64,000 bases of DNA from Mytilus trossulus. Lineage: Eukaryota. Below are positions 20,001-32,800 of the stretch, piece after piece. The first letter of the stretch is position 1; each line of letters begins with the position of its first letter. Position numbers and translations under genes: made by a program. The notes beneath the pieces were generated by a model. The model was given only the letters and a program-made list of their open reading frames with translations. It searched no databases and was not told the origin of the DNA. The stretch lies in NCBI RefSeq assembly GCF_036588685.1, contig NC_086378.1, forward strand, positions 65,968,001 to 66,032,000. The letters run 5' to 3'.

Positions 20001-22390
20001 TTTATTACAATAACATTAAAAACTATTGTCCACAACATATTTTGATAACAAAATAAATATAGTGTATAAGGCTTTCTAAAAGTTGTGTTCTTCTTAAAAA
20101 GAGCGACATATGGTATGTTATTCGTGTAATATTTTGTAGATATTGAAATAAGTTGTTATGTTTTAAGATTTAAATTATTTTACTCTTTATTCCTCATTTT
20201 TCTTGTTTATTTTTTTTGCTGATCAAATTTTACCAATACAATATGAATAGTTAAAAATATCTTCCACAGAACAATTGATCAGAAGTTTTGTTTCAGAAAT
20301 GCGCGTGTAGATACTTTACATGACGACTTCTTTATTTTTTTTTTAAAGTGAATCAACCATACTGGTATTTATCCCTTTTACTATTGTATTAGATCAGAAA
20401 TTTTAATTGTCTATACAAGAAGTGGTAAGCATTTTTAGAAATTATTGATACAAGGCATTCATCTCTTTGAAAGATTTTGAAGAGGGATTTTTATTTTTCA
20501 GGGTTACAATTATTATTGCCTCCATAGCAGGTGGAATGGTTCTCATGGTGATTGTTATTTTAATTGTACGATGTGTATGTTTGAAGTGTAAAAAGACACC
20601 TGTCCGAAATATACGAGCACGTGGTCCGCCATCATGTACGTATTTTCAGAATTGCCGCAAAAATGTATTTATCTACTTTTACTTATTAAATGATTTCATT
20701 CGTATAATTCGCATGTTTGACAAAAGGGACAAGAACTAATACTAATATCCAAACAATTGAAATTGCAGGAAGGATAATGTGTTCAAATAAAACTAAATTG
20801 AAATATACAATCCAAACAATAAAGGCATCGCATCATTTGCTTGCAAGTATTCCTTTGTGTATTTTGAACAACGCCATGGGAAAATACGAAAAACAACTAA
20901 AGGACAAACAACAATACACATAATCTAAATAAGAAAACTTAAGACTGAGCGTTAACAATCCCACTATAACTGGGGTGATATCATGTGCTCTGGAAAGGTA
21001 ATTAGATCCTGCTCCATATGGTATCGTATAGATTTTTATGTAAATAAAAACACGTTTATAAGTCGTATTTGGTAGGCTTCATTCGAGGACAAACAGGACT
21101 GAGAAGTAAAGACTGATAAAACATAAATGTTGTCATCTGAAATATTCTATAACGATCATCCAATTCGTGATAGCGTCCGTAAAGTTTTGGAAGTGATGAT
21201 TTTAATTCTTCGCTTGAAATTGTTGGTTAACTAGCAAATGTTCAATACTATTGACAGAGAAAATATACTTAGAGTGTATGTTCTATAAAAGATCTTATGG
21301 TGGGCGAGATGATAATTTTAAAATTAAATTCGTCTCGTTTGACATAGATTCTGATAATTAATTAGGTGACCGTGTATGTACAATTCGAGGTATACGTTTG
21401 GAAATGAGGCAGAGGAAGCCGTGCCTGTTGGTTTGCTCTCTAAAATACACCTGTATGCTATGTTAGAATTTACTTTACATATGCAATATCTGTGTAAATT
21501 TTAGTCTAACTCAACGCCAAGCATTCTCATATCAAATATGATCGCTTCGACAAAAAAGTTACTTTAACAACGTCTCATAAAAAAAGCAAAACGCAAATAA
21601 ATCATCTAGTAGAAAGCAGTAGCTTAAAAATAAAAAGTCTACACATCAAACAAACGGAATCCATACATTTTTGTTAGAAAACACACATTACAAAGTTATT
21701 ATTATTACAAAAAAAGTATATAGCACAATACTGCAATCGTGGCTTATCCATTTATGTTAAATTCTTAGTATAACATGAAAGGATATATGTTGCTTTTCGT
21801 TTCATGTACAATGTGTTTTTTGAATAATTTTACAAACACTTTATCGTTTTTTCCATCTATGGAGTAAAATCATACGAAAAGCAGAGGCAAAAGTAAAAGT
21901 AAAAGATACAACAATCAATCCTTTTAAGTAAAGATAATAAAAATAGACAAAAAGCTGAAAACAACAATTTAATGCAACACTATAAAAACTGTTGTACATA
22001 TCCGTTTGAAAAGTAATTATTAAATAGAAAAGATGTGGTATGATTGCCAATGAGACAACTCTCTATAAGAGACCAAATGAGACAGAAATTAACAACTATA
22101 GGTCAAAGTACAGCCTTCAACAATCCGCAAAGCCCATACCACATAGTCATCTATAAAAGGCCCAAAAATGATAATGTAAAACAATTCAAACGAGAAAGCT
22201 AACGGTCTAATTTATGTACACAAAATGAACACGGTAATGTTAATCTTATTTATACATTACAGATGACGACACCAGACGTCCTTACAGACTTCCTGATCCA
22301 CCGGCGTATTCACCTCGAAACTATAACTATCCATCTCATCCGCCACCAGCATACGAAACACATATATCTCTTCCGGGAGTAACGGAATAG
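14069..22390 (+). CDS. Small type-I membrane protein A with two PPAY motifs (119 aa, 4 exons)
   Basis: Exons 14069-14111, 15756-15810, 20502-20635, 22263-22390 have GT-AG borders and consistent phases (1,2,1). Protein: MLYIFLGWLFLFHLGSTGVKA-ASSTAQQDVDYV-VTIIIASIAGGMVLMVIVILIV-RCVCLKCKKTPVRNIRARGPPSYDDTRRPYRLPDPPAYSPRNYNYPSHPPPAYETHISLPGVTE. All exons are conserved in the paralog. Confidence 0.85.
15125..15168 (-). ncRNA. Type I hammerhead ribozyme (minimal palindromic stem III)
   Basis: GCGTCA-CTGATGA-GTC-TCATGTA-GAC-GAAA-CGCGCG-TC-TGCTGT. Predicted GUC cleavage between 15131 and 15130. Confidence 0.85.
15480..15523 (-). ncRNA. Type I hammerhead ribozyme (second tandem copy)
   Basis: GCATCG-CTGATGA-GTC-TTATGTA-GAC-GAAA-CGCGCG-TC-TGGCGT. 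Predicted cleavage between 15486 and 15485. Confidence 0.85.
17259..17855. mobile_element. TTAA-target MITE (Kolobok-type GG...CC ends)
   Basis: TIRs GGTAGATAAGGTGTCT / AGACACCCCTTCTACC, TTAA on both sides. Absent from the paralog at ~34485. Confidence 0.82.
18844..19430. mobile_element. Second copy of the TTAA MITE (copied by the tandem duplication)
   Basis: Same TIRs and same flanks as 17259-17855. Confidence 0.8.
22030..22230 (+). repeat. Interspersed repeat starting AAGATGTGGTATGATTGCCAATGAGACAACTCTC
   Basis: A longer copy is at 56811-57480, with fragments at ~14583 and ~58452. Confidence 0.7.
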
Positions 22391-23203
22391 TCGATACAGT
22401 AACTTATTAACACAATGTTGTCGTTGATTACAGTTTACAGAGACATTTCCATGTTGGTTAAGTCTTAATAGAACATTCAGTTGCATTGAAGTAACGTACT
22501 AGAAATTGTAAACTCTCTGCATATTTTTGTTTGTTGTCATTAAAAAAACCCAAAGAATTTAGAAAAACTAATACAATGTCTATGTACAGATGAAAAGCAC
22601 TACAAAAAATGTCATTCGATACTGATTACAAACAGAAAAAAGACCGTATAGAATTTGTTTCTAAATCAGAAATTGCATATACCATGTCAGGAATATGACA
22701 GTTGTTATACTATCGTTTGATATATTTGAGATTTTGATTTTGTCATTTAATAACAGACTTTCTGTTTAGAATTTTCCTCGGAATTCGGTATTTTTGTGAT
22801 TTTTTTTTTTTTTGGCGAAAAGATACACGTTCTTCCGTTATTCTTTATATAATTACAAATAACACTTTACTTGTCTTTTCCGATGTGAAATATATAAATA
22901 AAAAAACGTAAAACGATTAATTTTTTATCAAAAATTCAAAGACATAATTTTTAACTTACATTTAGTTGTGTATGAAATATTGCAACAGTTTATACTTAAT
23001 TATTTCAAACATAAATCACTACTGAAAAACTATTAACATTGTCATAACCATTATCTAAAGAAACAGCAGTTGCTTTGTCTTTGAAATTGTATTGTTAGTT
23101 TAAAAAACTAAATAAAATGATAACATTGTTTTCCCTTATCATATCTGTCCAACAGATATGTAAAATGATGTCAGGATATAAAGTCAATCATTAAAAATAA
23201 CAC

Positions 23204-23300
23204 TTATATTATAATTCGCCAACTCAAACGAATATAAATTATTTAATAAATAAAACAACACATAAATAGGATAAGTGTGCCTACAGCTGTAGCAGCCTTT
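23204..23300 (-). repeat. Split direct repeat B2 (3' terminus)
   Basis: Matches 23798-23894; identical over 23212-23300. Confidence 0.92.
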
Positions 23301-23529
23301 AATATTACATTACATTCAATTTCATTCTCAAAACTAAAGTCCTTCACTTTAAATTCAGGCACACTACCATCAGTCCAATCATACAATAGCACAGTTATAT
23401 ACAGTAACAGTAACACAATCAAAAACTATCTACAAAAGAGGAAAAATTCATATTAATATAATGTACTAATGCATATACTCCTATTAACGATAACCATCTC
23501 ATAAAAGGGGTGGGTGGGTGGGTAAACAT

Positions 23530-23894
23530 AATAACGAATGCTGCTACGTCGTACTATAGGCAAACTTCGAATAACTTAATTTTCTCAAGCTACCCCCTTA
23601 AGTAATACTTAATCATGCTTTTCACGAAAATCATGAGGGCATATACCCGTAAAACCGGCAGTACGGGTATATGCCATCCAATCAAATAGAACGTAAACAC
23701 ACACCATGTGCTTGATATAAACACACACACGTGTTTATAGTAAACAATCACTTGACCGTTACAACGTCATGTGACTTAATACCTTTAATAAATATATTTA
23801 TATTCTAATTCGCCAACTCAAACGAATATAAATTATTTAATAAATAAAACAACACATAAATAGGATAAGTGTGCCTACAGCTGTAGCAGCCTTT
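23530..23894 (-). repeat. Internal B1-A2 repeat junction
   Basis: B1 (23798-23894) directly abuts A2 (23530-23797), reproducing the expected circle junction of the element ends. Confidence 0.92.
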
Positions 23895-23984
23895 CGAAAG
23901 ACAAAGAAAGCAAAAAATGCAAGTAGATGTGAGATGTGAACATAGAGTGATACATATACAATGTATAAAGTATATTTATGAAAA

Positions 23985-25001
23985 TTATATTCCCAAACTT
24001 TTAGACACTGTCAGTTTTTCTTTTATATTTTCTCTTACATAGCCATCTTTGGCTTTATCTGAAGCCCATCTACCATGCTTCTTGAATAATCTATCCTGAA
24101 TGCCAGCTGATGCAGCTGCAGTAGCTCCACCTGATCTCAAGCTATGTAATCCAAATTTGGACTTATCTAAACCGATAGATTCAAGAGCTGATAATATAAT
24201 TTCTCTTACTCTAGTATATGATAAAGGTTTAAGACCTCTCAGTTTATAAGACTTAGATTTTTTACATAAATACATTGATCTAAATATATAATCTGAAGAT
24301 AAAGCGTCAATATTAGATAATAATAAATATTTCTCCAACATACTAACAGGACATGTTTGTGTATCTGTTCTAGCAATTAAAACCTGTGTGCCTTCTCTAT
24401 AATGATCAGTTTTGCTTTTCGTTATGAGCAAAGAGACATGTGAATCACTAAATTTTATATCAGATCTTTTTAAATTTACCATTTCAGAAAACCTTAAGAA
24501 CCCTGCATAGCTTATAAGACACATACAACAAATTCTAATTTCTATAAGATTGTTACATTCTTGACCATATTTAATAACAATTTTCTTTAAAATATCTGGT
24601 GTAATTGGTTCTTTTTTTATTTACAATAGCATGTCCGATCTTTCTATGAGCTCCTTCTTTAACCGATATACACAACTGTGAATAACACGGGTTTGGATAG
24701 CCTGCTAGTTTATGAGCCCAGCTTATGGAATAATATGCTTCTTCAACCTTAGCATACGAATTAAATGTCTTTGACAGGTGTATTAAGTACAATGAAACAT
24801 AAAAATCTGAAGCTGGTAAAGGTTTAACATTTAAATAGTTATTACACCACTTACAGAAATTGTTAAATGCATATGAATATTTTCTTTTGGTATTCTCGGC
24901 CTTCGAACGCAGACAGAACTCAGGTAGGCAATTAGATAAAGATGTCAAATCTTGGTCGACTGGCTTAGGCAAGGATTTCCATATTCCACATGAAAAAATA
25001 T
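23985..25001 (-). CDS. Tyrosine recombinase of the retrotransposon (interrupted by a 1-nt frameshift in an A7 run)
   Basis: N-terminal core-binding part (RSKAENTKRKY..F..WC) and catalytic part (GFLRFSE, SKTD, HSLRSGGAT, HGRW.S...Y). Deleting one base of 24612-24618 restores NKKEPITPDILKKIVIKYGQECNNLIEIRICCMCLISYAGFLR. Confidence 0.9.
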
Positions 25002-25213
25002 CTGAAAAACGTGCATATGAAATAGAAATATAATCTACTATACAACAAGCTTACAATATAATTAAATGACCTTGCCATATTTATTTTTCATACTGGCCAT
25101 GTCAATGAGACCTTGCCTATTAAATTTGGCCTTGTCATCAACAAACGACCTTGCCAATAAATTTGGCCTTGTCTTTACTATGCGACCTTGCTCAACAGCC
25201 TTGTCGTCAATTC

Positions 25214-27964
25214 TTACGTGAACTCAGCGTTCAATCTAATAGCTAAAACACTAGAAACGAATTCAGAAGATCCCAACAAGGACTTATTATTCATACCATG
25301 AATAAAAATGTTCTGATTTGGTTGAAATTCTAAAACATCAATTACATATGGTTGCAAATGCGAACCTCTTTTAAAAATCATTGTCCAAAATGACGAGGAA
25401 GGCCACTTTGGAACGATCAAAGTGCCTCTAGCTTTACATAAAATCAAATGTTTAATTGCTCTACAGACAACAGAAATTGGAGGAACAATCCAATTAACTT
25501 CATTGTTCCAATTTTGCGTGAACGCATCAACTGCTTCAACACCTGGATTCCAGAACTTAGAATTAAACCTGGGTAATTTTTTATTTAAATTACTCGCAAA
25601 TCTGTCCACAGTATGCGGACCCCACATATCATCTATAAATTTAAAAAATTCTATGCTTGTTCCCCAGTCTTCTATATCAATCATTTTTGAAATATAATCA
25701 GCTTTAGTATTTTCAGATCTTGGGATCCAAACAACTTCTAACGTAATATTCAATTCAGAACACAACTTAAAAATATTCATAGCTATCTCTTGTAAATGTA
25801 CTTTTGAACTTCCTTTCTGAACAATGAAAACACAGTTATTGTTATCTGTATGCCATTTAACACATTTATTTCTTAAACGGTTTTTAAAAGACATCAATGC
25901 TAACAAAATAGCTTGAAGTTCTCTCCAAGTAGAACTCTGTATAGACTCTTGTAAAGTCCACATCTGATGAAAAATATTAGAGTCAATATCTATCGAGTAA
26001 GCACCAGCAGCTACATTACTTGCATCAGAGTATACAACCACGTGGGGAAAAGAATAACCTGCTAAATGTTTTCTGTTCAATCTTAGAATGTTATTCAGCC
26101 AAAATGTGAGCTCATTGAATACACAATCGGGACATTCCAATTTTAAATTTAAATCCCACTTTACCCTGCTTTCAATAGCCCAGTGTAAATAACGGGTCAT
26201 TAAACTAGTTATGTTACCCATGACTGGACACATAGAAATTACCTTTCCAGTTACCTGAGCCAATTTACGTGCTGTGAAATAAGGAAAGTTATTCAAAACA
26301 TCAACCAATGATGCTAGTGTATTTTCAATCCGTCTATCTGATATACTAATTGAAAAATCAGACGAATTCCAAACTAAACCTAACCACTCTAAACATTGGA
26401 CTGGTTCAAAAATAGATTTTTCCCTGTTAATAAGAAACCCTGCTTCTAACAAAGACGTTTTTACAAAAGATGAACATTCGGAAGCTTCTTGTTTATTTTT
26501 ACCCATTCCAAGTCCATCATCTAAGTAAAGCACAATATCTACGCCGTTTTCTCGCCAGTATTTTACGATTGGACGTAAACATTTAGTGAATAGATATGGA
26601 GCAGACGAAAGACCAAAGGCTAAAACTGTAAAACAGTAAAATTTATTGTTCCAGCAAAGTCCTAAATATGTTTGTTGTTTAGTACATACGTCATAATGAA
26701 AATAACCAGACTTAAGATCAAACTTAAATAGATAGCAATCTTTTGTGAAATAGTTTAAAGCCACTTTCCAGTCTTCAAATTTAATTCTTTCTTTTTTAAT
26801 AAAAACATTCAGTTCACTCAAATCCAAAATCAGACGTTTTTTGCCCGAACTTTGAACTGCAACACTAAGCGGATTTACAACAAAAGGTTGAAATGGAGTT
26901 TCAATAACACATCCGATATCAAGTAATTCTGAAATTGCTTCATTTACAAATTTAGAATGGACATTAGCAGATTTGTTATTCTTAAATGACATAGATATAG
27001 GAGTCTGCAAAAAAGGAATAACATACCCATTTTTGATAGTATTTAAAACAAACTCATTAGCACCTATATGTTTCCAAAATTGTATATGCTTGCGTAAGCT
27101 ATATTTCACCCCTTTAGCAACAGATGAAATATCAATATTATCAAAATATTTTGCATGTGACATAAACAGTTCAAACTGTCCGTAAAGATTACGTTCATCT
27201 AAAAAAGTAGTATAAAAATACTTATCATTAATTCTGTTGCCTTGTTGTCCCTGAGACACCTGGTTTTGTACTGAATAAGAGGGGGCACTGAGTTCGCCAG
27301 TGACCAAGCTGGTTGCAGTTGTAACAGATGTCCTGAGATGACGGTTCCCTCCGTCTGCCGGTCCGAAAGGGCGGCTGTTGGTAGTTGTTTTGTCTAGCGT
27401 TATGTTGATTAGGCATAGGTGCAGAAGGAGCAGAAGCAGTAGCTGTAGCGGTTCTATAAGGATGAGGTCTTTTCTTTTCCTTGATACTCCTGATGGCACG
27501 GGTTTCTGCAGAACGAATGCGCTTCTCGTCTTCTGAGTCGGAGGCAAGGTCGTCGCTTTCATATTCACGGACGGTTTTCCATCCTGCAGGAGATTTGTCT
27601 GCAATGCGGATGAGTTTATTTCGCTTCTTAACCTTAAGGATAGCTCCAGATACCAATTTAAGACAAGCTGCATCTTCATCAGGAATACGCTTCTGGAGCT
27701 TAACGAGGTCGGCCATGATTTCACAATTAAAGATGAATTGTATCTGGTTGCCCTCACCTTTGAGTTTAACTGAAACTTCCTGCTTGAGTTTGGTAGCAAA
27801 ATTCTCGTTGCCAACTGCCAAATCTTTGTGTAGAGTAGCGATCTTCCCATCAAGATAGGTTTTAAACAGAGAGAAAGTATCCACCAAGTCGTTATTCCCA
27901 GTATTATGTGCAGAAATACCATCACGCAACGAATGTACACTAGTACCAGCTGGCAAAGATTCAT
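25214..27964 (-). CDS. pol: Pol: reverse transcriptase, RNase H and methyltransferase-like domain
   Basis: RT motifs FDLKSGY, FGLSSAP, YLDD; RNase H YSDAS, WRELQAI, HTDN, ADYISK; DIRS MT-like DRFAS..FNS..DAF...W..NWIVPP. Overlaps gag in another frame; the true start is uncertain. Confidence 0.95.
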   Translation of the reverse strand: MNLCQLVLVYIRCVMVFLHIILGITTWWILSLCLKPILMGRSLLYTKIWQLATRILLPNSSRKFQLNSKVRATRYNSSLIVKSWPTSLSSRSVFLMKMQLVLNWYLELSLRLRSEINSSALQTNLLQDGKPSVNMKATTLPPTQKTRSAFVLQKPVPSGVSRKRKDLILIEPLQLLLLLLLHLCLINITLDKTTTNSRPFGPADGGNRHLRTSVTTATSLVTGELSAPSYSVQNQVSQGQQGNRINDKYFYTTFLDERNLYGQFELFMSHAKYFDNIDISSVAKGVKYSLRKHIQFWKHIGANEFVLNTIKNGYVIPFLQTPISMSFKNNKSANVHSKFVNEAISELLDIGCVIETPFQPFVVNPLSVAVQSSGKKRLILDLSELNVFIKKERIKFEDWKVALNYFTKDCYLFKFDLKSGYFHYDVCTKQQTYLGLCWNNKFYCFTVLAFGLSSAPYLFTKCLRPIVKYWRENGVDIVLYLDDGLGMGKNKQEASECSSFVKTSLLEAGFLINREKSIFEPVQCLEWLGLVWNSSDFSISISDRRIENTLASLVDVLNNFPYFTARKLAQVTGKVISMCPVMGNITSLMTRYLHWAIESRVKWDLNLKLECPDCVFNELTFWLNNILRLNRKHLAGYSFPHVVVYSDASNVAAGAYSIDIDSNIFHQMWTLQESIQSSTWRELQAILLALMSFKNRLRNKCVKWHTDNNNCVFIVQKGSSKVHLQEIAMNIFKLCSELNITLEVVWIPRSENTKADYISKMIDIEDWGTSIEFFKFIDDMWGPHTVDRFASNLNKKLPRFNSKFWNPGVEAVDAFTQNWNNEVNWIVPPISVVCRAIKHLILCKARGTLIVPKWPSSSFWTMIFKRGSHLQPYVIDVLEFQPNQNIFIHGMNNKSLLGSSEFVSSVLAIRLNAEFT

Positions 27965-27998
27965 GGTCGGAATCTAGAAGTTTCTCGGAGTCAGACAT
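27228..27998 (-). CDS. gag: Gag-like ORF1 with CCHC zinc knuckle
   Basis: First ATG at 27998. RNKLIRIADKSPAGWKTVREYESDDLASDSEDEKRI segment and CYNCNQLGHWRTQC knuckle. Confidence 0.9.
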   Translation of the reverse strand: MSDSEKLLDSDHESLPAGTSVHSLRDGISAHNTGNNDLVDTFSLFKTYLDGKIATLHKDLAVGNENFATKLKQEVSVKLKGEGNQIQFIFNCEIMADLVKLQKRIPDEDAACLKLVSGAILKVKKRNKLIRIADKSPAGWKTVREYESDDLASDSEDEKRIRSAETRAIRSIKEKKRPHPYRTATATASAPSAPMPNQHNARQNNYQQPPFRTGRRREPSSQDICYNCNQLGHWRTQCPLLFSTKPGVSGTTRQQN

Positions 27999-28003
27999 AC
28001 CAC

Positions 28004-28271
28004 AATAACGAATGCTGCTACGTCGTACTATAGGCAAACTTCGAATAACTTAATTTTCTCAAGCTACCCCCTTAAGTAATACTTAATCATGCTTTTCACG
28101 AAAATCATGAGGGCATATAACCGTAAAACCGGCAGTACGGGTATATGCCATCCAATCAAATAGAACGTAAACACACACCATGTGCTTGATATAAACACAC
28201 ACACGTGTTTATAGTAAACAATCACTTGACCGTTACAACGTCATGTGACTTAATACCTTTAATAAATATAT
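28004..28271 (-). repeat. Split direct repeat A1 (5' terminus)
   Basis: 268 bp, 1 mismatch to 23530-23797. Confidence 0.93.
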
Positions 28272-29829
28272 CTATTCAATATATAAAAATGAATACTTTT
28301 ATCGATTTCATGTTTTAAGTACAACATGATTTAAATCTGAAAAAGGACATTTTACTTACAAGAGAGGAATAGTATAGAAAATACACTAGCTATTATCAGA
28401 TCATTTACTTTTCTTGGGTCTGTCTTCTGCATACATTTACCCTTCCAATTGTCTTGTCATTGTGCTGCAGAGTAGAAGTACGATGGCATGCATTTAGACT
28501 AAAGGGCACATCAGCATAGACATTATCGGGGTCGTTTCTGCATTTCATGTTACTTATTTGTAAACCGCGCCATTTGTTGCACTTAAGTGTTTTTGTTGTT
28601 TCATTTGTTTCCTCTTATAGTTGATGTGTTTCCCTCGGTTTTAGTTTGTAACCCGGATTTGTTTTTTTCTCAATCGATTTTCGAACAGCGATATACTATT
28701 GTTGCCTTTATTTGGATACAACACAATACGATACTTCGATACCCATCTTAATCAAACATATTCAAAGTGGTCAGTTTATTTATGATGACGTCTACAAAAA
28801 TTTTAAACTTAAGAGAAAAATTTACACTTTTACAAATAACATCACTTGGTTCACCAACTTCATATTTCGTAGTAGCCCTATATATATTTGATCCCATACT
28901 TCCAAGAATAAAATTATTATGAGGACGAACTCTCAAAATCTAATTTTTAATCACAGTATGAGAGATGTATAAGATAGCAATATCGATATATCAGTCATAT
29001 GTTTGTATTTTATCTTTATCAACAATAAGAAACATGTTCGAATAAAAAACGTGTTCACAGGATTTTTATATCTATTTTATTTTGCATTAAACATTAAAAT
29101 ACATGAAATTTGAAAGAAGCGTCAACGTAGTCGTCCATCGTAGGCCAATTACACATGTAAATAAACTCATCATAGATACCAGGACTAAATTTTTTATAGA
29201 CGCCAGACGCAAGACGTTGTCCAGCAGTCCTAATATGAAATGACTTTAGACAGATCACAACATTTAGAGTATTTTTGACCGGTTAGATTTTCTCTTTTTG
29301 AAACAGTTTTCAGGTATAGTGACAAAACTAGAAGGTTATCCTTATATAAAGGCAACAGTAGTATACCGCTGTTCAAGTTATGCTATCCATTTAGCCGTGT
29401 CGGTCGTATTAGTTGACGGATTATCGGCATTTTTTAAAAACTAGATACAACCAGAGTGTGGCCAGTTGTAGTCTCATATTGGCCAAGTAGTTGCAGGGGA
29501 GAAGGTCATTGTAACGGACGACAGATACGACGGATGATGGCGTAATAAGAATAGCTCATATTATCCTTAGCGTTATGTTGGCTAATAGAAAGGAGGAGAA
29601 AAAAAGACATCTGCTCATGAAATAATATATATGAAAAAACATAATCTTTCTTGTATTCATGTCGAAAGACGATTGTCAGAAAAAAAGTGACCGCTGAGTT
29701 AATTAATGCTTATCAACGTAGAGTGATTAATGAACAAACGACGAACTTAATTCTATTTTAAGATTTTTGTACTTTAAGGAAACAGAAACCTGATAAGCCT
29801 GATTTTGAGTAATCCGTTTTTTTAGTAAA

Positions 29830-32800
29830 AAAGTTTACTGTGATTTGAAGATGCTGTTACAGATGAAAACGTAAAAACGAAAACAATCTAAGTTTCAAGT
29901 CCAATGTTGGCCCAATCGTTGGATATTTTCCCGATAAACTGGCCAAAGAGGGACAATTCTTATCACATCAAAACCAGTTTATTGGAAAGACGCATTGATT
30001 CATTTCTTGTCAGTATTTATTGACACACAAAAAAGATCTGGAAGATCAAAATAAGCAGACCTGTAACCTTTCCTATAAATTATAGATATAATGTGTAAGT
30101 CATGCATTCTTAACTTTTCGATTAAAACTTGAAAATTGAGGCTTGCATTTATTCTCTATCAAGGTTTCGTTGAAAGAGATTTGTAATGCGTACACTAAAT
30201 ATTTGTAAGAGGTTTATAAATGATTAAATTAAACTCATTTCTTCAAATTTTGTACGGAACCCTGTTGATTGTTGTGGAAATTCTGTTTCACCAAGGATTT
30301 GCACCATTTCTCGGTACCACAAAACCGACTTATTTCCTGGATTGAAACATTATGAGGGGCTCAACATATGCGGCGATGGAACTGCCTACGTTGTCGTAAC
30401 ATCTAAGTGATTGGTTGAATTCGTTTAGTATAATCTTTTTTGTGAAACGCTTTGATTTATGTGTTTGTTTGTTCGTCGTGTTTATATTTAGTATAGTGTC
30501 GTCAGTTTTCGTTGAACGTAAGATTTTCGAATTGTTTGTATCTTCTCTCTTTCTATAAACGCTGTGCCAATACTATCTGTCAATACTATCGCCAGACCAA
30601 ATCATGTATTTCAATAATCCCACAAAAACAATATTAGTACCTTAAATAAATCAATCAAAAAGATATACTGGTAGACACTAAAATATAAAAAAATGTGATA
30701 AGACAACAGCCAATAACATTATATTAAAAACACACAAAGAGAAAAATAGTCCCCAAACGAGATATATTTCGAGAATAAACACAGAAAAAGACACTGTTAT
30801 TACAGAAACGTGTGTTCAAAGTAAAGGTTATTTTGATCATGTGGGAATGCTGTTTTTTCTGGTTTTTTGGGACTTTCACTCTGGCGGAAAGTTCTTGCAG
30901 CTGTTAATATTTATTTTTAAAACTCAGTCAATAGTTCTCAGTGCTTATTACTGTAAACCACAACTAATTAGGTTATGTTTTACCAATTATATTACAGTTT
31001 GTGTATGCCTCATGACAGTATTTATTAACTTTTAACGGAAATGTTAATTACATTTACCTGTTTAGTAAAATGAAACAATTAGATTAAACAAGACAGGCCC
31101 CAGTGTGATCTTATGAAGTTCTGTTATTAGTTTATGGTACCATAAGTGAACAACTTTATTATTCGTGGCCTCAAAAGTTTTAATACTTATTTCAACTTCT
31201 GTCATTATATGGTTCAAATGTATATACAGCTGTTCTTCGACAATACTGTTAAAGATTTAAGTTTATAATTAAAATATACGTATCCACAAAAAATAAAATG
31301 ATAATATCAAAGCAAGAAGATTCATACAGACACTTTCTAAATATATGACATTTGTAAAGAAGTCGTGATTCAATATGGAAAACTCTAAATAACTGGAACC
31401 TATATTACATGTTGTAATATGGTACATTTTTTTTAGGATGGTTATTTCTATTTCATGTAGGTATGTATAATGTAGTTTATGATTTGTCTGTTTATTTTGA
31501 GTATCGAAGTTAAGGGAAGACCATTTGATTTTGGTTGGAAAGAGGGGGACAATGCATGAACAAGAGGATATCATGGCCTGTTCAGAAGTAACACAATATG
31601 CTCTTTCCTTGACAGTATATATTTGAATATTCGGAATCTATTGTGTATCGTCATGACAATAGGTGAAAAAGCACATATCGCCCGCTAGAAAATATAATGT
31701 CCTCCTGTACATACGAAAAGAAAAAAATGTCATCGCCCTAGTCTGTTTACGGTGAAGTATAGTGATGATATAAGATCAGCAATAAAAAGAAAACGATATT
31801 TTAAAAGGGAACAACTGCTGAACAATAGTTTTCCGTCTTATTTCGAATACTAGTACTTATGATAATACACAAATTTTAGTTATTCTAGTTAGATGACAAA
31901 CTCTTTTATATTGATTTCGAGTCTAAACTCTTAGATTGACACTTCAAAAAGTTTGACTACAAAGTTTAAACTGTTCTTTGAGAGTCAGTGCAATCGATTT
32001 TGATTTTGTAGTAATTCGGTGTTCAAGTAGGATTTCCATAGGGTTCAAGTGATCGTTCATCGTCAATTGCAGGACATGACGACCTTTTACTTTTGTTTCC
32101 TTTCTCGTTGCATTTTATTTTACTGCTCCTTTCGTCCATAGCACAGTAATCATTATAGTTAAATAAACATAATTTTGCGGGTTTGTACAGATTTGGTAGA
32201 TACATGTGCATCTGTTTTAATATGAGGTAGAGGGTATATATTGTTATAGTGCTGTCTCATTGATTAAGTTTAGCTTTCTTGAATTTGAAAAATAATTTTA
32301 CGCCGAATAAGTAACTAATAAAAGAAACATCTTTCGCATCTAGTTTGGCATTTATAGACACCAAAGAGGGTTTACTGTAATTGATAGAAAGGGATAGGAA
32401 AAAAAACCAACTGAATTTGAAGACCATTTTCAATATTTATATAAAAAAAAAAAACGAACAGAGAAGTTGAGTGACAATTGAATAATTTACCGACTTGAGT
32501 TATAGTTTACATAAATATATACTGTGTTGATATTGATCCCCTTTGCATGTTATTAAAGTTAGTTAACACACGTATTTGTATTATTTCAGGTAGTAAATGT
32601 GTAGAGGCAGCCTTTTCAAATGCTCAACACGATGTTGATTACGTGTTAGTTGTTTGAGCAAATACCAAATGAGAAAACCATATAAAAATTAGCGGTTTTG
32701 TCATTTTTTTTACGAGTAAAAGTAACTAGACTTCAAAATGTAGTCTATAAGTCACCAAATCGGACCTTCAATTTGACATCTTTTTATTTGAATAAATAAA

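Follow-up and report, generated by a model that had tools for sequence, protein, structure and literature searches.

A conserved array of covarying hairpins within an AT-AC intron of a PAT-like retrotransposon: candidate Gag sites on unspliced RNA

The spacer between the pol and tyrosine recombinase (YR) genes of a PAT-like retrotransposon holds an array of short hairpins that is real, selected and structured, and that lies within a conserved AT-AC intron. The element was analysed in a stretch of 64,000 nucleotides from Mytilus trossulus, referred to as the window. Judging from the sequence comparisons, there is about an even chance that the array provides multivalent sites for the element's own Gag, which would mark unspliced RNA as the template to be copied. 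In order of likelihood, a packaging-like Gag site is followed by a Rev-response-like element, a loading site for Pol, and a CTE.

The hairpin array and its conservation

Eight 9-nt motifs (NNC-AWG-GNN) were located on the minus strand between positions 25205 and 25068 (25205-25197, 25192-25184, 25173-25165, 25155-25147, 25136-25128, 25117-25109, 25103-25095 and 25076-25068), about 3070 nt from the 5' end of the element; motif-pair matches, the folds of single hairpins, covariation and selection all delimit the same array. The 9-mers pair two by two and form stems around a two-fold symmetric 3x3 internal loop, C-AWG-G/C-AWG-G. The original prediction of four hairpins at 25205-25184, 25173-25147, 25136-25109 and 25103-25068 (hairpins 1 to 4) was correct in position: the motif-pair pattern matched four times in the window, always in the array, and in none of 100 shuffles. 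The compensatory change GCU/AGC in hairpin 1, an AUG variant, which lies in hairpin 4, and a gap of 8 nt between the pol stop (TAA, 25216-25214) and the array were present as described. The apical loops, said to vary from 4 to 18 nt, measured 4 (hairpin 1), 9, 10 and 18 nt.

Each isolated hairpin was predicted to fold as stem, 3x3 loop and stem with -7.1 to -10.2 kcal/mol. For hairpins 1 to 4 alone, 12, 0, 9 and 1 of 200 shuffles folded as well, and for the whole array region (folding z -3.35) none of 200 did. As the loop is two-fold symmetric, a shifted register is also possible (motif 4 with 5, 6 with 7), and the minimum free energy structure in context preferred the pairings 1-2, 4-5 and 7-8 (P 0.99, 0.87 and 0.81 at 37°C), while at 15°C the pairing 3-4 was predicted at 0.75. 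Hairpin 1 had the highest predicted stability in context (P 0.99), hairpin 2 competed with the shifted pairing of motifs 4 and 5, hairpin 3 was the weakest (-7.1 kcal/mol) and was predicted to form rarely in context, and some folds of hairpin 4, with its AUG/AAG loop, enclosed a hairpin of motifs 6 and 7. Four side-by-side hairpins are one of several predicted folds, every one of which presents the same loop.

Relatives were collected from the best 150 pol-end matches listed, of which 110 were fetched and grouped into 22 families at 80% DNA identity. Two to six such hairpins were present in the pol-YR spacer of each of eight families (F0-F5, F8 and F11), whose pol ends are 52-63% identical to that of the window. 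These eight families form one clade (SH-aLRT 99) in a quick tree that was calculated with SH-aLRT only and a midpoint root from 53 of 59 rows, six short rows being left out. Conservation and covariation in relatives, on which the original prediction had staked itself, were found, the fold being kept with covarying stems in all eight families. Over 26 hairpins, the two variable stem positions gave 88 of 104 Watson-Crick pairs between neighbouring motifs (mean of permutations 51; none of 20,000 reached this), and with one hairpin per family 29 of 32 (permutation mean 15). When 23 of the 26 hairpins, from the eight families, were aligned, 95.7% of the cells paired, 19 cells had changed on both sides, and four of the six stem pairs showed such a change. 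None of 500 shuffles reached the paired fraction or the covariation score of this alignment, the rows of which are related to each other, so that shuffle fractions are not probabilities; slid controls were 9-44% paired. Two of five covariation measures did not exceed the shuffles, the number of pairs with double change being reached by 89 of 500 and another measure by 404 of 500. RNAalifold returned the same consensus structure. Pairing of each motif with itself as a triloop hairpin was ruled out by the first stem position, where pairing between neighbours was Watson-Crick in 47 of 52 cases versus 8 of 52 for self-pairing; only F8 is compatible with either fold.

In F3 the duplex halves occur in reversed order, so that the fold is kept and not the linear order. 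Several hairpins of F4 and F11 had a low predicted probability in context. The loop sequence AAG is not invariant: AUG was counted 23 times, AAG 19, GAG 5, ACG 4 and AGG once, and what stays constant in the motif is the C, the G and the closing base pairs. When one full locus of each family was scanned with a descriptor, the duplex was clustered in 8 of the 22 families, only in the pol-YR spacer and on the sense strand, apart from two single matches and six antisense matches in F15. Of 269 metagenome loci, 80 were examined, and the duplex array occurred in one of them only, a near-identical F4 copy (L183), so that no 3x3 form was found outside this host lineage; a scan of viral contigs gave 17 pattern matches and no relative.

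Within the family of the window, 13 copies had shared variants in 1 of 72 motif columns versus 12 of 66 linker columns (Fisher p 0.0008), and the motif columns are under selection there. This selection, and the persistence of the array at 52-63% pol identity with differing stems and linkers, argue against tandem duplication of a short near-palindrome as a neutral origin of the array. Such an origin would agree with units 2 and 3 of the array, which are 82% alike, and with the obvious tandem expansion in F4, F9, F11 and F15, and it is the least probable of the readings weighed here.

Both 9-mers also fit RCAWGGY, a sequence close to nuclear-receptor and p53 half-sites (consensus YCAAGGYCR for NR5A and RRRCWWGYYY for p53). 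The array might on this reading consist of tandem sites in double-stranded DNA to which a transcription factor of the NR5A/FTZ-F1 or p53-like kind binds, perhaps as an internal enhancer. YCAAGGYCR had no match in the array and one in the window, which is the chance level, and a single p53 half-site in locus L031 was also at chance level. The stems covary and the loops are fixed, the loop is a direct repeat whose symmetry consequently exists only in a folded single strand, and YR is made by splicing and not from an internal start. An NR5A or p53 response element is largely refuted by the consensus matches, and DNA sites of this kind are highly improbable.

The position of the array and its purine-rich loops point to sense RNA as the strand in which the structure forms. 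The ratios of G-U to A-C were 8:1 and 24:7, not significant against a compositional 2:1, and because the antisense strand folds too (z -3.11 as RNA and -2.77 as DNA), we infer the active strand. Action on single-stranded minus-strand cDNA, with CWT/CWT loops, in replication or recombinase loading would draw on this antisense folding, on the linear single-stranded cDNA through which DIRS-1 amplifies (PMC7192593, in extract), and on the sense loop CUU of F15, which is the reverse complement of AAG. The antisense DNA fold is weaker, however (-17 versus about -44 kcal/mol for sense), the loops would be pyrimidine mismatches, and the position just inside the 3' end of the intron would be left unexplained; this reading appears very unlikely.

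The surrounding element and its introns

By its sequence, the host element is a PAT-like tyrosine-recombinase retrotransposon of the DIRS order, a group defined by gag-CCHC, RT-RNase H-MT, YR and the split direct repeats A1-B1A2-B2 (PMC4157794, in extract). All features lie on the minus strand. The gag gene (27228-27998) encodes 256 amino acids with long helices, an RRE[PA] motif and one CCHC zinc knuckle. ORF2, or pol (25214-27973), overlaps gag in the +1 frame and contains RT, RNase H and a Dam-like methyltransferase (MT) domain (Pfam RVT_1 1e-14, RT_RNaseH 0.009 and Dam 5.5e-4, the latter two below the curated cut-offs). The MT domain has VPP and lacks NPPY/F, the canonical methyltransferase motif. 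The YR exon (23985-25010; Pfam Phage_integrase 2.8e-12) has no start codon of its own, and the window copy is frameshifted near 24610. The split repeats are A1 (28001-28275), B1 (23894-23785) with A2 (23801-23527), together 23527-23894, and B2 (23191-23300), which ends the element; the A repeats comprise 275 nt with 99% identity and the B repeats 110 nt with 95%.

In all 18 loci in which both frames were read, ORF2 lay in the +1 frame relative to the overlapping gag; in F20, gag and pol are fused in frame. A candidate +1 ribosomal frameshift site in gag, CCC-UUU-CGG at 27363-27371, may lead into ORF2. The sequence (CCC/TTT)-TTT-CGN is codon-invariant in 15 of 17 families and presumably resembles the PA-X +1 frameshift motif.

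Several further observations were made on the element and its copies. Each A repeat contains a strong 44-nt inverted repeat (28152-28109 and 23678-23635), possibly a replication or recombination signal, with a weak Rfam match to mir-10 (E 0.01, below the cut-off). A donor-like GTATGT covers the gag start codon at the A1 boundary (28001-27995, minus strand), where no joint was present in the run contigs. Three related fragments of the window family (L269, L271 and L274; G000:C8, about 50.4-51.2 Mb) start a few bases 3' of the array, at about window position 25064, and two F8 copies form an inverted facing pair at G000:C6:71674262-71677095.

An intron of 2215 nt with AT-AC ends extends from 27225 to 25011, and its excision removes nearly all of pol together with the array. 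Contigs of X1 and X2 (two runs, two studies, two organisms; RNA status guessed) join 27226 to 25010; the skipped 2215 nt start with ATAAGT and end with AC, and the joint is in frame with ORF2. The donor is of the U2 type, with no U12-type ATATCC. ATAAGT or ATGAGT (G/ATRAGT) was present at the same place in 11 of the 22 families (F0-F5, F8, F9, F11, F12 and F21; F20, an unclear case, is not counted), and G/ATRAGT was also found near the gag end in several further families. The acceptor AC, followed by a sequence like RTTT(T/A)(T/G/A)CAG, is kept in all eight families of the clade, 56-157 nt past the last motif. A genomic F11 copy (L315/L362; G000:C8:19406500-19412500), about 97-99% identical to its unspliced sister, is joined exactly at the ends of the AT-AC intron and is a complete processed copy with both split repeats present. 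The gag gene of this copy carries a 440-nt insertion flanked by a 95-nt duplication.

Since the array lies inside the intron, it is absent from spliced RNA, and the contig joints and the spliced genomic copy bear out its predicted confinement to unspliced RNA. The distance to the acceptor had to be corrected. The array had been placed about 65 nt before an AG acceptor at 25003-25002, but the transcript-like contigs use the AC at 25012-25011, 57 nt past the array. The AG, 9 nt downstream of the AC and in the same frame, is a possible alternative acceptor, and the joint of an older, F12-like processed copy (L333/L363; G000:C12:31252000-31257800) fits it.

A second, canonical GT-AG intron from 24854 to 23430 is suggested by the loose end of one X1 contig at 24855, which matches 23429 onward (by eye), and by a joint from 24855 to the B repeat in X2. 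Its removal takes out most of YR, B1 and A2, and would yield a gag-only RNA that could not be copied whole. The raw RNA runs X21 and X24, in whose data the library strand is unstated, contributed no more than 47 and 16 reads, and no splice joint passed the threshold.

The array might also take part in a feedback like that of Rev or CERV. A product of the spliced RNA, Gag or Gag-YR, might bind the array in the nucleus and block the AC acceptor or export intron-containing RNA, thereby turning expression towards pol and genome RNA. The end of the array is always found 56-157 nt short of the acceptor of a weak AT-AC intron, the spliced forms look dominant in X2, the motif is family-specific, and Cer1 CERV provides a precedent (PMC10309623, in extract). 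On the other hand, the array never overlaps the last 55 nt with the branch and pyrimidine signals, and array-less families keep the same AT donor. Feedback of this kind is possible, though we rate its probability as rather low; it is compatible with a template mark read by Gag. A role as a shield against NMD was set aside by reasoning, since gag, 2 kb upstream, is where most ribosomes would terminate.

Loop types, candidate partner and template choice

Hairpin arrays were not confined to the 3x3 clade. A scan of 21 families found nine others with at least three same-loop hairpins in the spacer and three with two. The tetraloop C(ACUG)G was present in F6, F7, F10, F12, F13, F14 and F16 and in the metagenome loci L184, L188, L189 and L199, with covarying stems (Watson-Crick pairs in 91 of 114 cases; mean of permutations 49). 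GCUU, CUU, GUGAU, UCGGU, CAGGUU and GUUU were further loops at the same spot, and 6 of 22 metagenome spacers contained at least three hairpins. The type of loop tracks the pol tree and not the host, several loops occurring in one genome and C(ACUG)G both here and in other hosts. The ACUG families flank the 3x3 clade on the midpoint-rooted tree, which makes the 3x3 loop likely to be derived; AAG/AAG is the form that a more widespread type of hairpin array takes in one clade. In at least five families the spacer is short and no array was detected in it. For four array-less families, a scan outside the spacer, blind to 3x3 duplexes and degenerate loops, gave no set of at least three identical-loop hairpins in 400 nt.

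Some spacers were unusual. That of L167 (F12) contained about 30 ACUG tetraloop hairpins, spaced by 23-24 nt over about 1.3 kb, and that of L172/L101 (F15) at least eight TGCAC-CTT-GTGCA units, the centre of which is the reverse complement of the AAG loop. Inspection by eye of the metagenome loci L186/L238, of a sister clade, showed repeats from which an asymmetric internal loop, ACG/CG, could arise; this loop may be related to the 3x3 loop.

Within one host the loop varies from family to family, yet loops are shared across hosts; this suggests a partner encoded by the element, and Gag is the candidate favoured here. The predicted Gag model consisted of long helices (pTM 0.39) plus the knuckle. 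A fold search gave no PDB match at E<=0.001 and no capsid fold, so that packaging may here mean the formation of an RNP. RRE[PA] stands just before the knuckle in all eight Gags of the clade and in none of nine others; as it has a single origin, it provides a lead and not evidence of co-evolution. Gag-like sequences in the Atlas fell only into unnamed zf-CCHC clusters, with Mollusca as the commonest phylum. The knuckles of retroviruses recognise short motifs that contain G, UCUG and GGAG among them (PMC7599994, in extract).

The course of events that we propose would begin with the folding of the eight repeats in sense RNA, which is predicted to produce the symmetric internal loop C-AWG-G in several copies. 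The weak AT-AC ends would leave a fraction of the RNA unspliced, and this RNA would give rise to Gag and Gag-Pol and also serve as the template. Singly spliced RNA would yield Gag and, through the likely +1 frameshift, Gag-YR, and doubly spliced RNA would yield Gag. Gag would bind the array through its zinc knuckle and RRE[PA] arm and thereby raise the chance of the RNA being bundled and reverse-transcribed.

The genomic copies give an estimation of which RNA is copied. Among 146 merged YR loci from the best 150 matches, 133 had pol upstream and seven more keep the array or the 3' end of the intron, which makes 140 of 146 that keep the intron or its 3' end; four were uninformative fragments and two were spliced. 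The spliced copies, one of F11 (L315/L362) and one F12-like (L333), both belong to array-bearing lineages. For the window's family, an exact junction probe found no genomic copy, and inspection of 16 YR-exon and 12 gag-end loci gave no spliced copy. The contig depth in X2, a poor measure of expression, was 84.6 for gag, 20.8 for YR and 9.3 for pol. No terminal repeat is lost from singly spliced RNA, and L362 shows that such RNA can be copied; that this happens rarely suggests that something in the intron favours copying. No spliced copy was found in the array-less families either (at least five families, about 19 fetched copies), so the preference for unspliced RNA does not need the array, and the two spliced copies from array-bearing lineages indicate that the array is not essential for copying. 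The array is not singled out by these counts, for which cis-preference of Pol is an equally good explanation.

Newly made Pol could exert such a cis-preference if its RT or Dam-like domain bound the hairpins right behind its own stop codon. In five of eight families the first motif starts within -11 to +10 nt of the pol stop, Pol is made from unspliced RNA only, and the MT domain has VPP and lacks the canonical motif. This domain has no known function (PMC6681497, in extract). In F1, F2 and F3, however, 41-107 nt separate the start of the array from the pol stop, and two to six hairpins, or up to 30 tetraloops in one F12 copy, fit an abundant oligomeric protein better than scarce Pol. A loading site for Pol is improbable. 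The RT of DIRS-1 acts in trans (PMC7192593, in extract), which would call for a mark on the RNA and weakly favours such a mark.

Extended to animal PAT-like elements in general, Gag recognition leads to a tentative picture of the array as a family-specific RNA barcode. The AT-AC intron would be weak by design and carry at its 3' end a hairpin array that is read by the Gag of the same family. In the clade of the window, an ancestral C(ACUG)G tetraloop would have been rebuilt as the 3x3 loop while Gag gained its RRE[PA] arm; the loop could also form between two RNAs as a dimer linkage. Such a barcode, if true, would couple intron retention to template choice and keep dozens of co-resident families from cross-mobilising each other. 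Natural loop variants matched to natural Gag variants make RNA-protein specificity testable by simple swaps.

Comparison with known systems

The expression of a recombinase without a start codon, the selection of RNA and priming are largely open questions for DIRS-order elements, whose primer is unknown (PMC7192593, in extract). The locus provides a testable plan of expression with a likely +1 frameshift, a conserved AT-AC intron and a second GT-AG intron. PAT-like elements share gag-CCHC, RT-RNase H-MT, YR and the A1-B1A2-B2 repeats with the element, and the extracts of PMC3266345, PMC4157794, PMC6681497 and PMC7192593 describe no hairpin array, splicing signal or packaging signal for them. 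No earlier description of such an array or of AT-AC introns was found in the literature on DIRS-order elements that was covered, outside of which stand subscription reviews (e.g. Goodwin and Poulter), Repbase notes and supplements.

The intron corresponds to the U2-type AT-AC (AT-AC II) introns, for example those of SCN4A and SCN5A, in its AT...AC ends and its U2-type donor ATRAGT, which is not ATATCC. AT-AC II introns are very rare in hosts, with 15 in human, 6 in mouse and 3 in fly (PMC1557818, in extract), whereas here one is kept over many retrotransposon families and spans pol. Its conservation in a mobile element is worth noting because such introns are vanishingly rare in host genes, and it is arguably as surprising as the array itself.

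Packaging, CTE-like export and regulation of splicing had been offered as roles of the array. A conserved, covarying structure present only in the spliced-out RNA agrees with this set of options, of which the CTE is the weakest. Like the CTEs of MPMV and NXF1 intron 10, the array has internal loops in a retained intron; these are purine-rich and symmetric, and non-homologous CTE-like elements are known in retroelements (PMC4338338, in extract). The NXF1-binding inner loop of the CTE has 6+6 nt and is invariant from fish to mammals (PMC4338338, in extract), whereas the loop here has 3+3 nt, differs in sequence and is family-specific. An Rfam search at E<=10 over positions 22000-30500 gave 11 weak matches, none of which overlapped the array. 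The change of loop between families inside one host, with several unrelated loops, weakens the CTE analogy and indicates a partner encoded by the element, and binding by a host factor for export or splicing, for instance NXF1, is accordingly unlikely. The array is not a member of the CTE family, nor is it a canonical retroviral psi.

Rev/RRE and the CERV of Cer1 resemble the array as structured elements in a retained intron with a possible partner from spliced RNA (PMC10309623, in extract). They differ from it in that no dedicated accessory gene was seen here and the array consists of small repeats, and its export role is putative.

The proposed Gag sites may be compared with the packaging signals of retroviruses that zinc-knuckle NC binds, such as UCUG of MoMuLV and the GGAG loop of HIV-1. 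Those signals are located in the 5' leader. The array, in contrast, is found behind pol, some 3 kb into the element, and has a symmetric 3x3 loop, and the Gag that is its putative ligand has no capsid match. Short, repeated, structured motifs confined to unspliced RNA are common to both, a Gag with a single knuckle is available here, and unspliced RNA is preferentially copied (PMC7599994, in extract).
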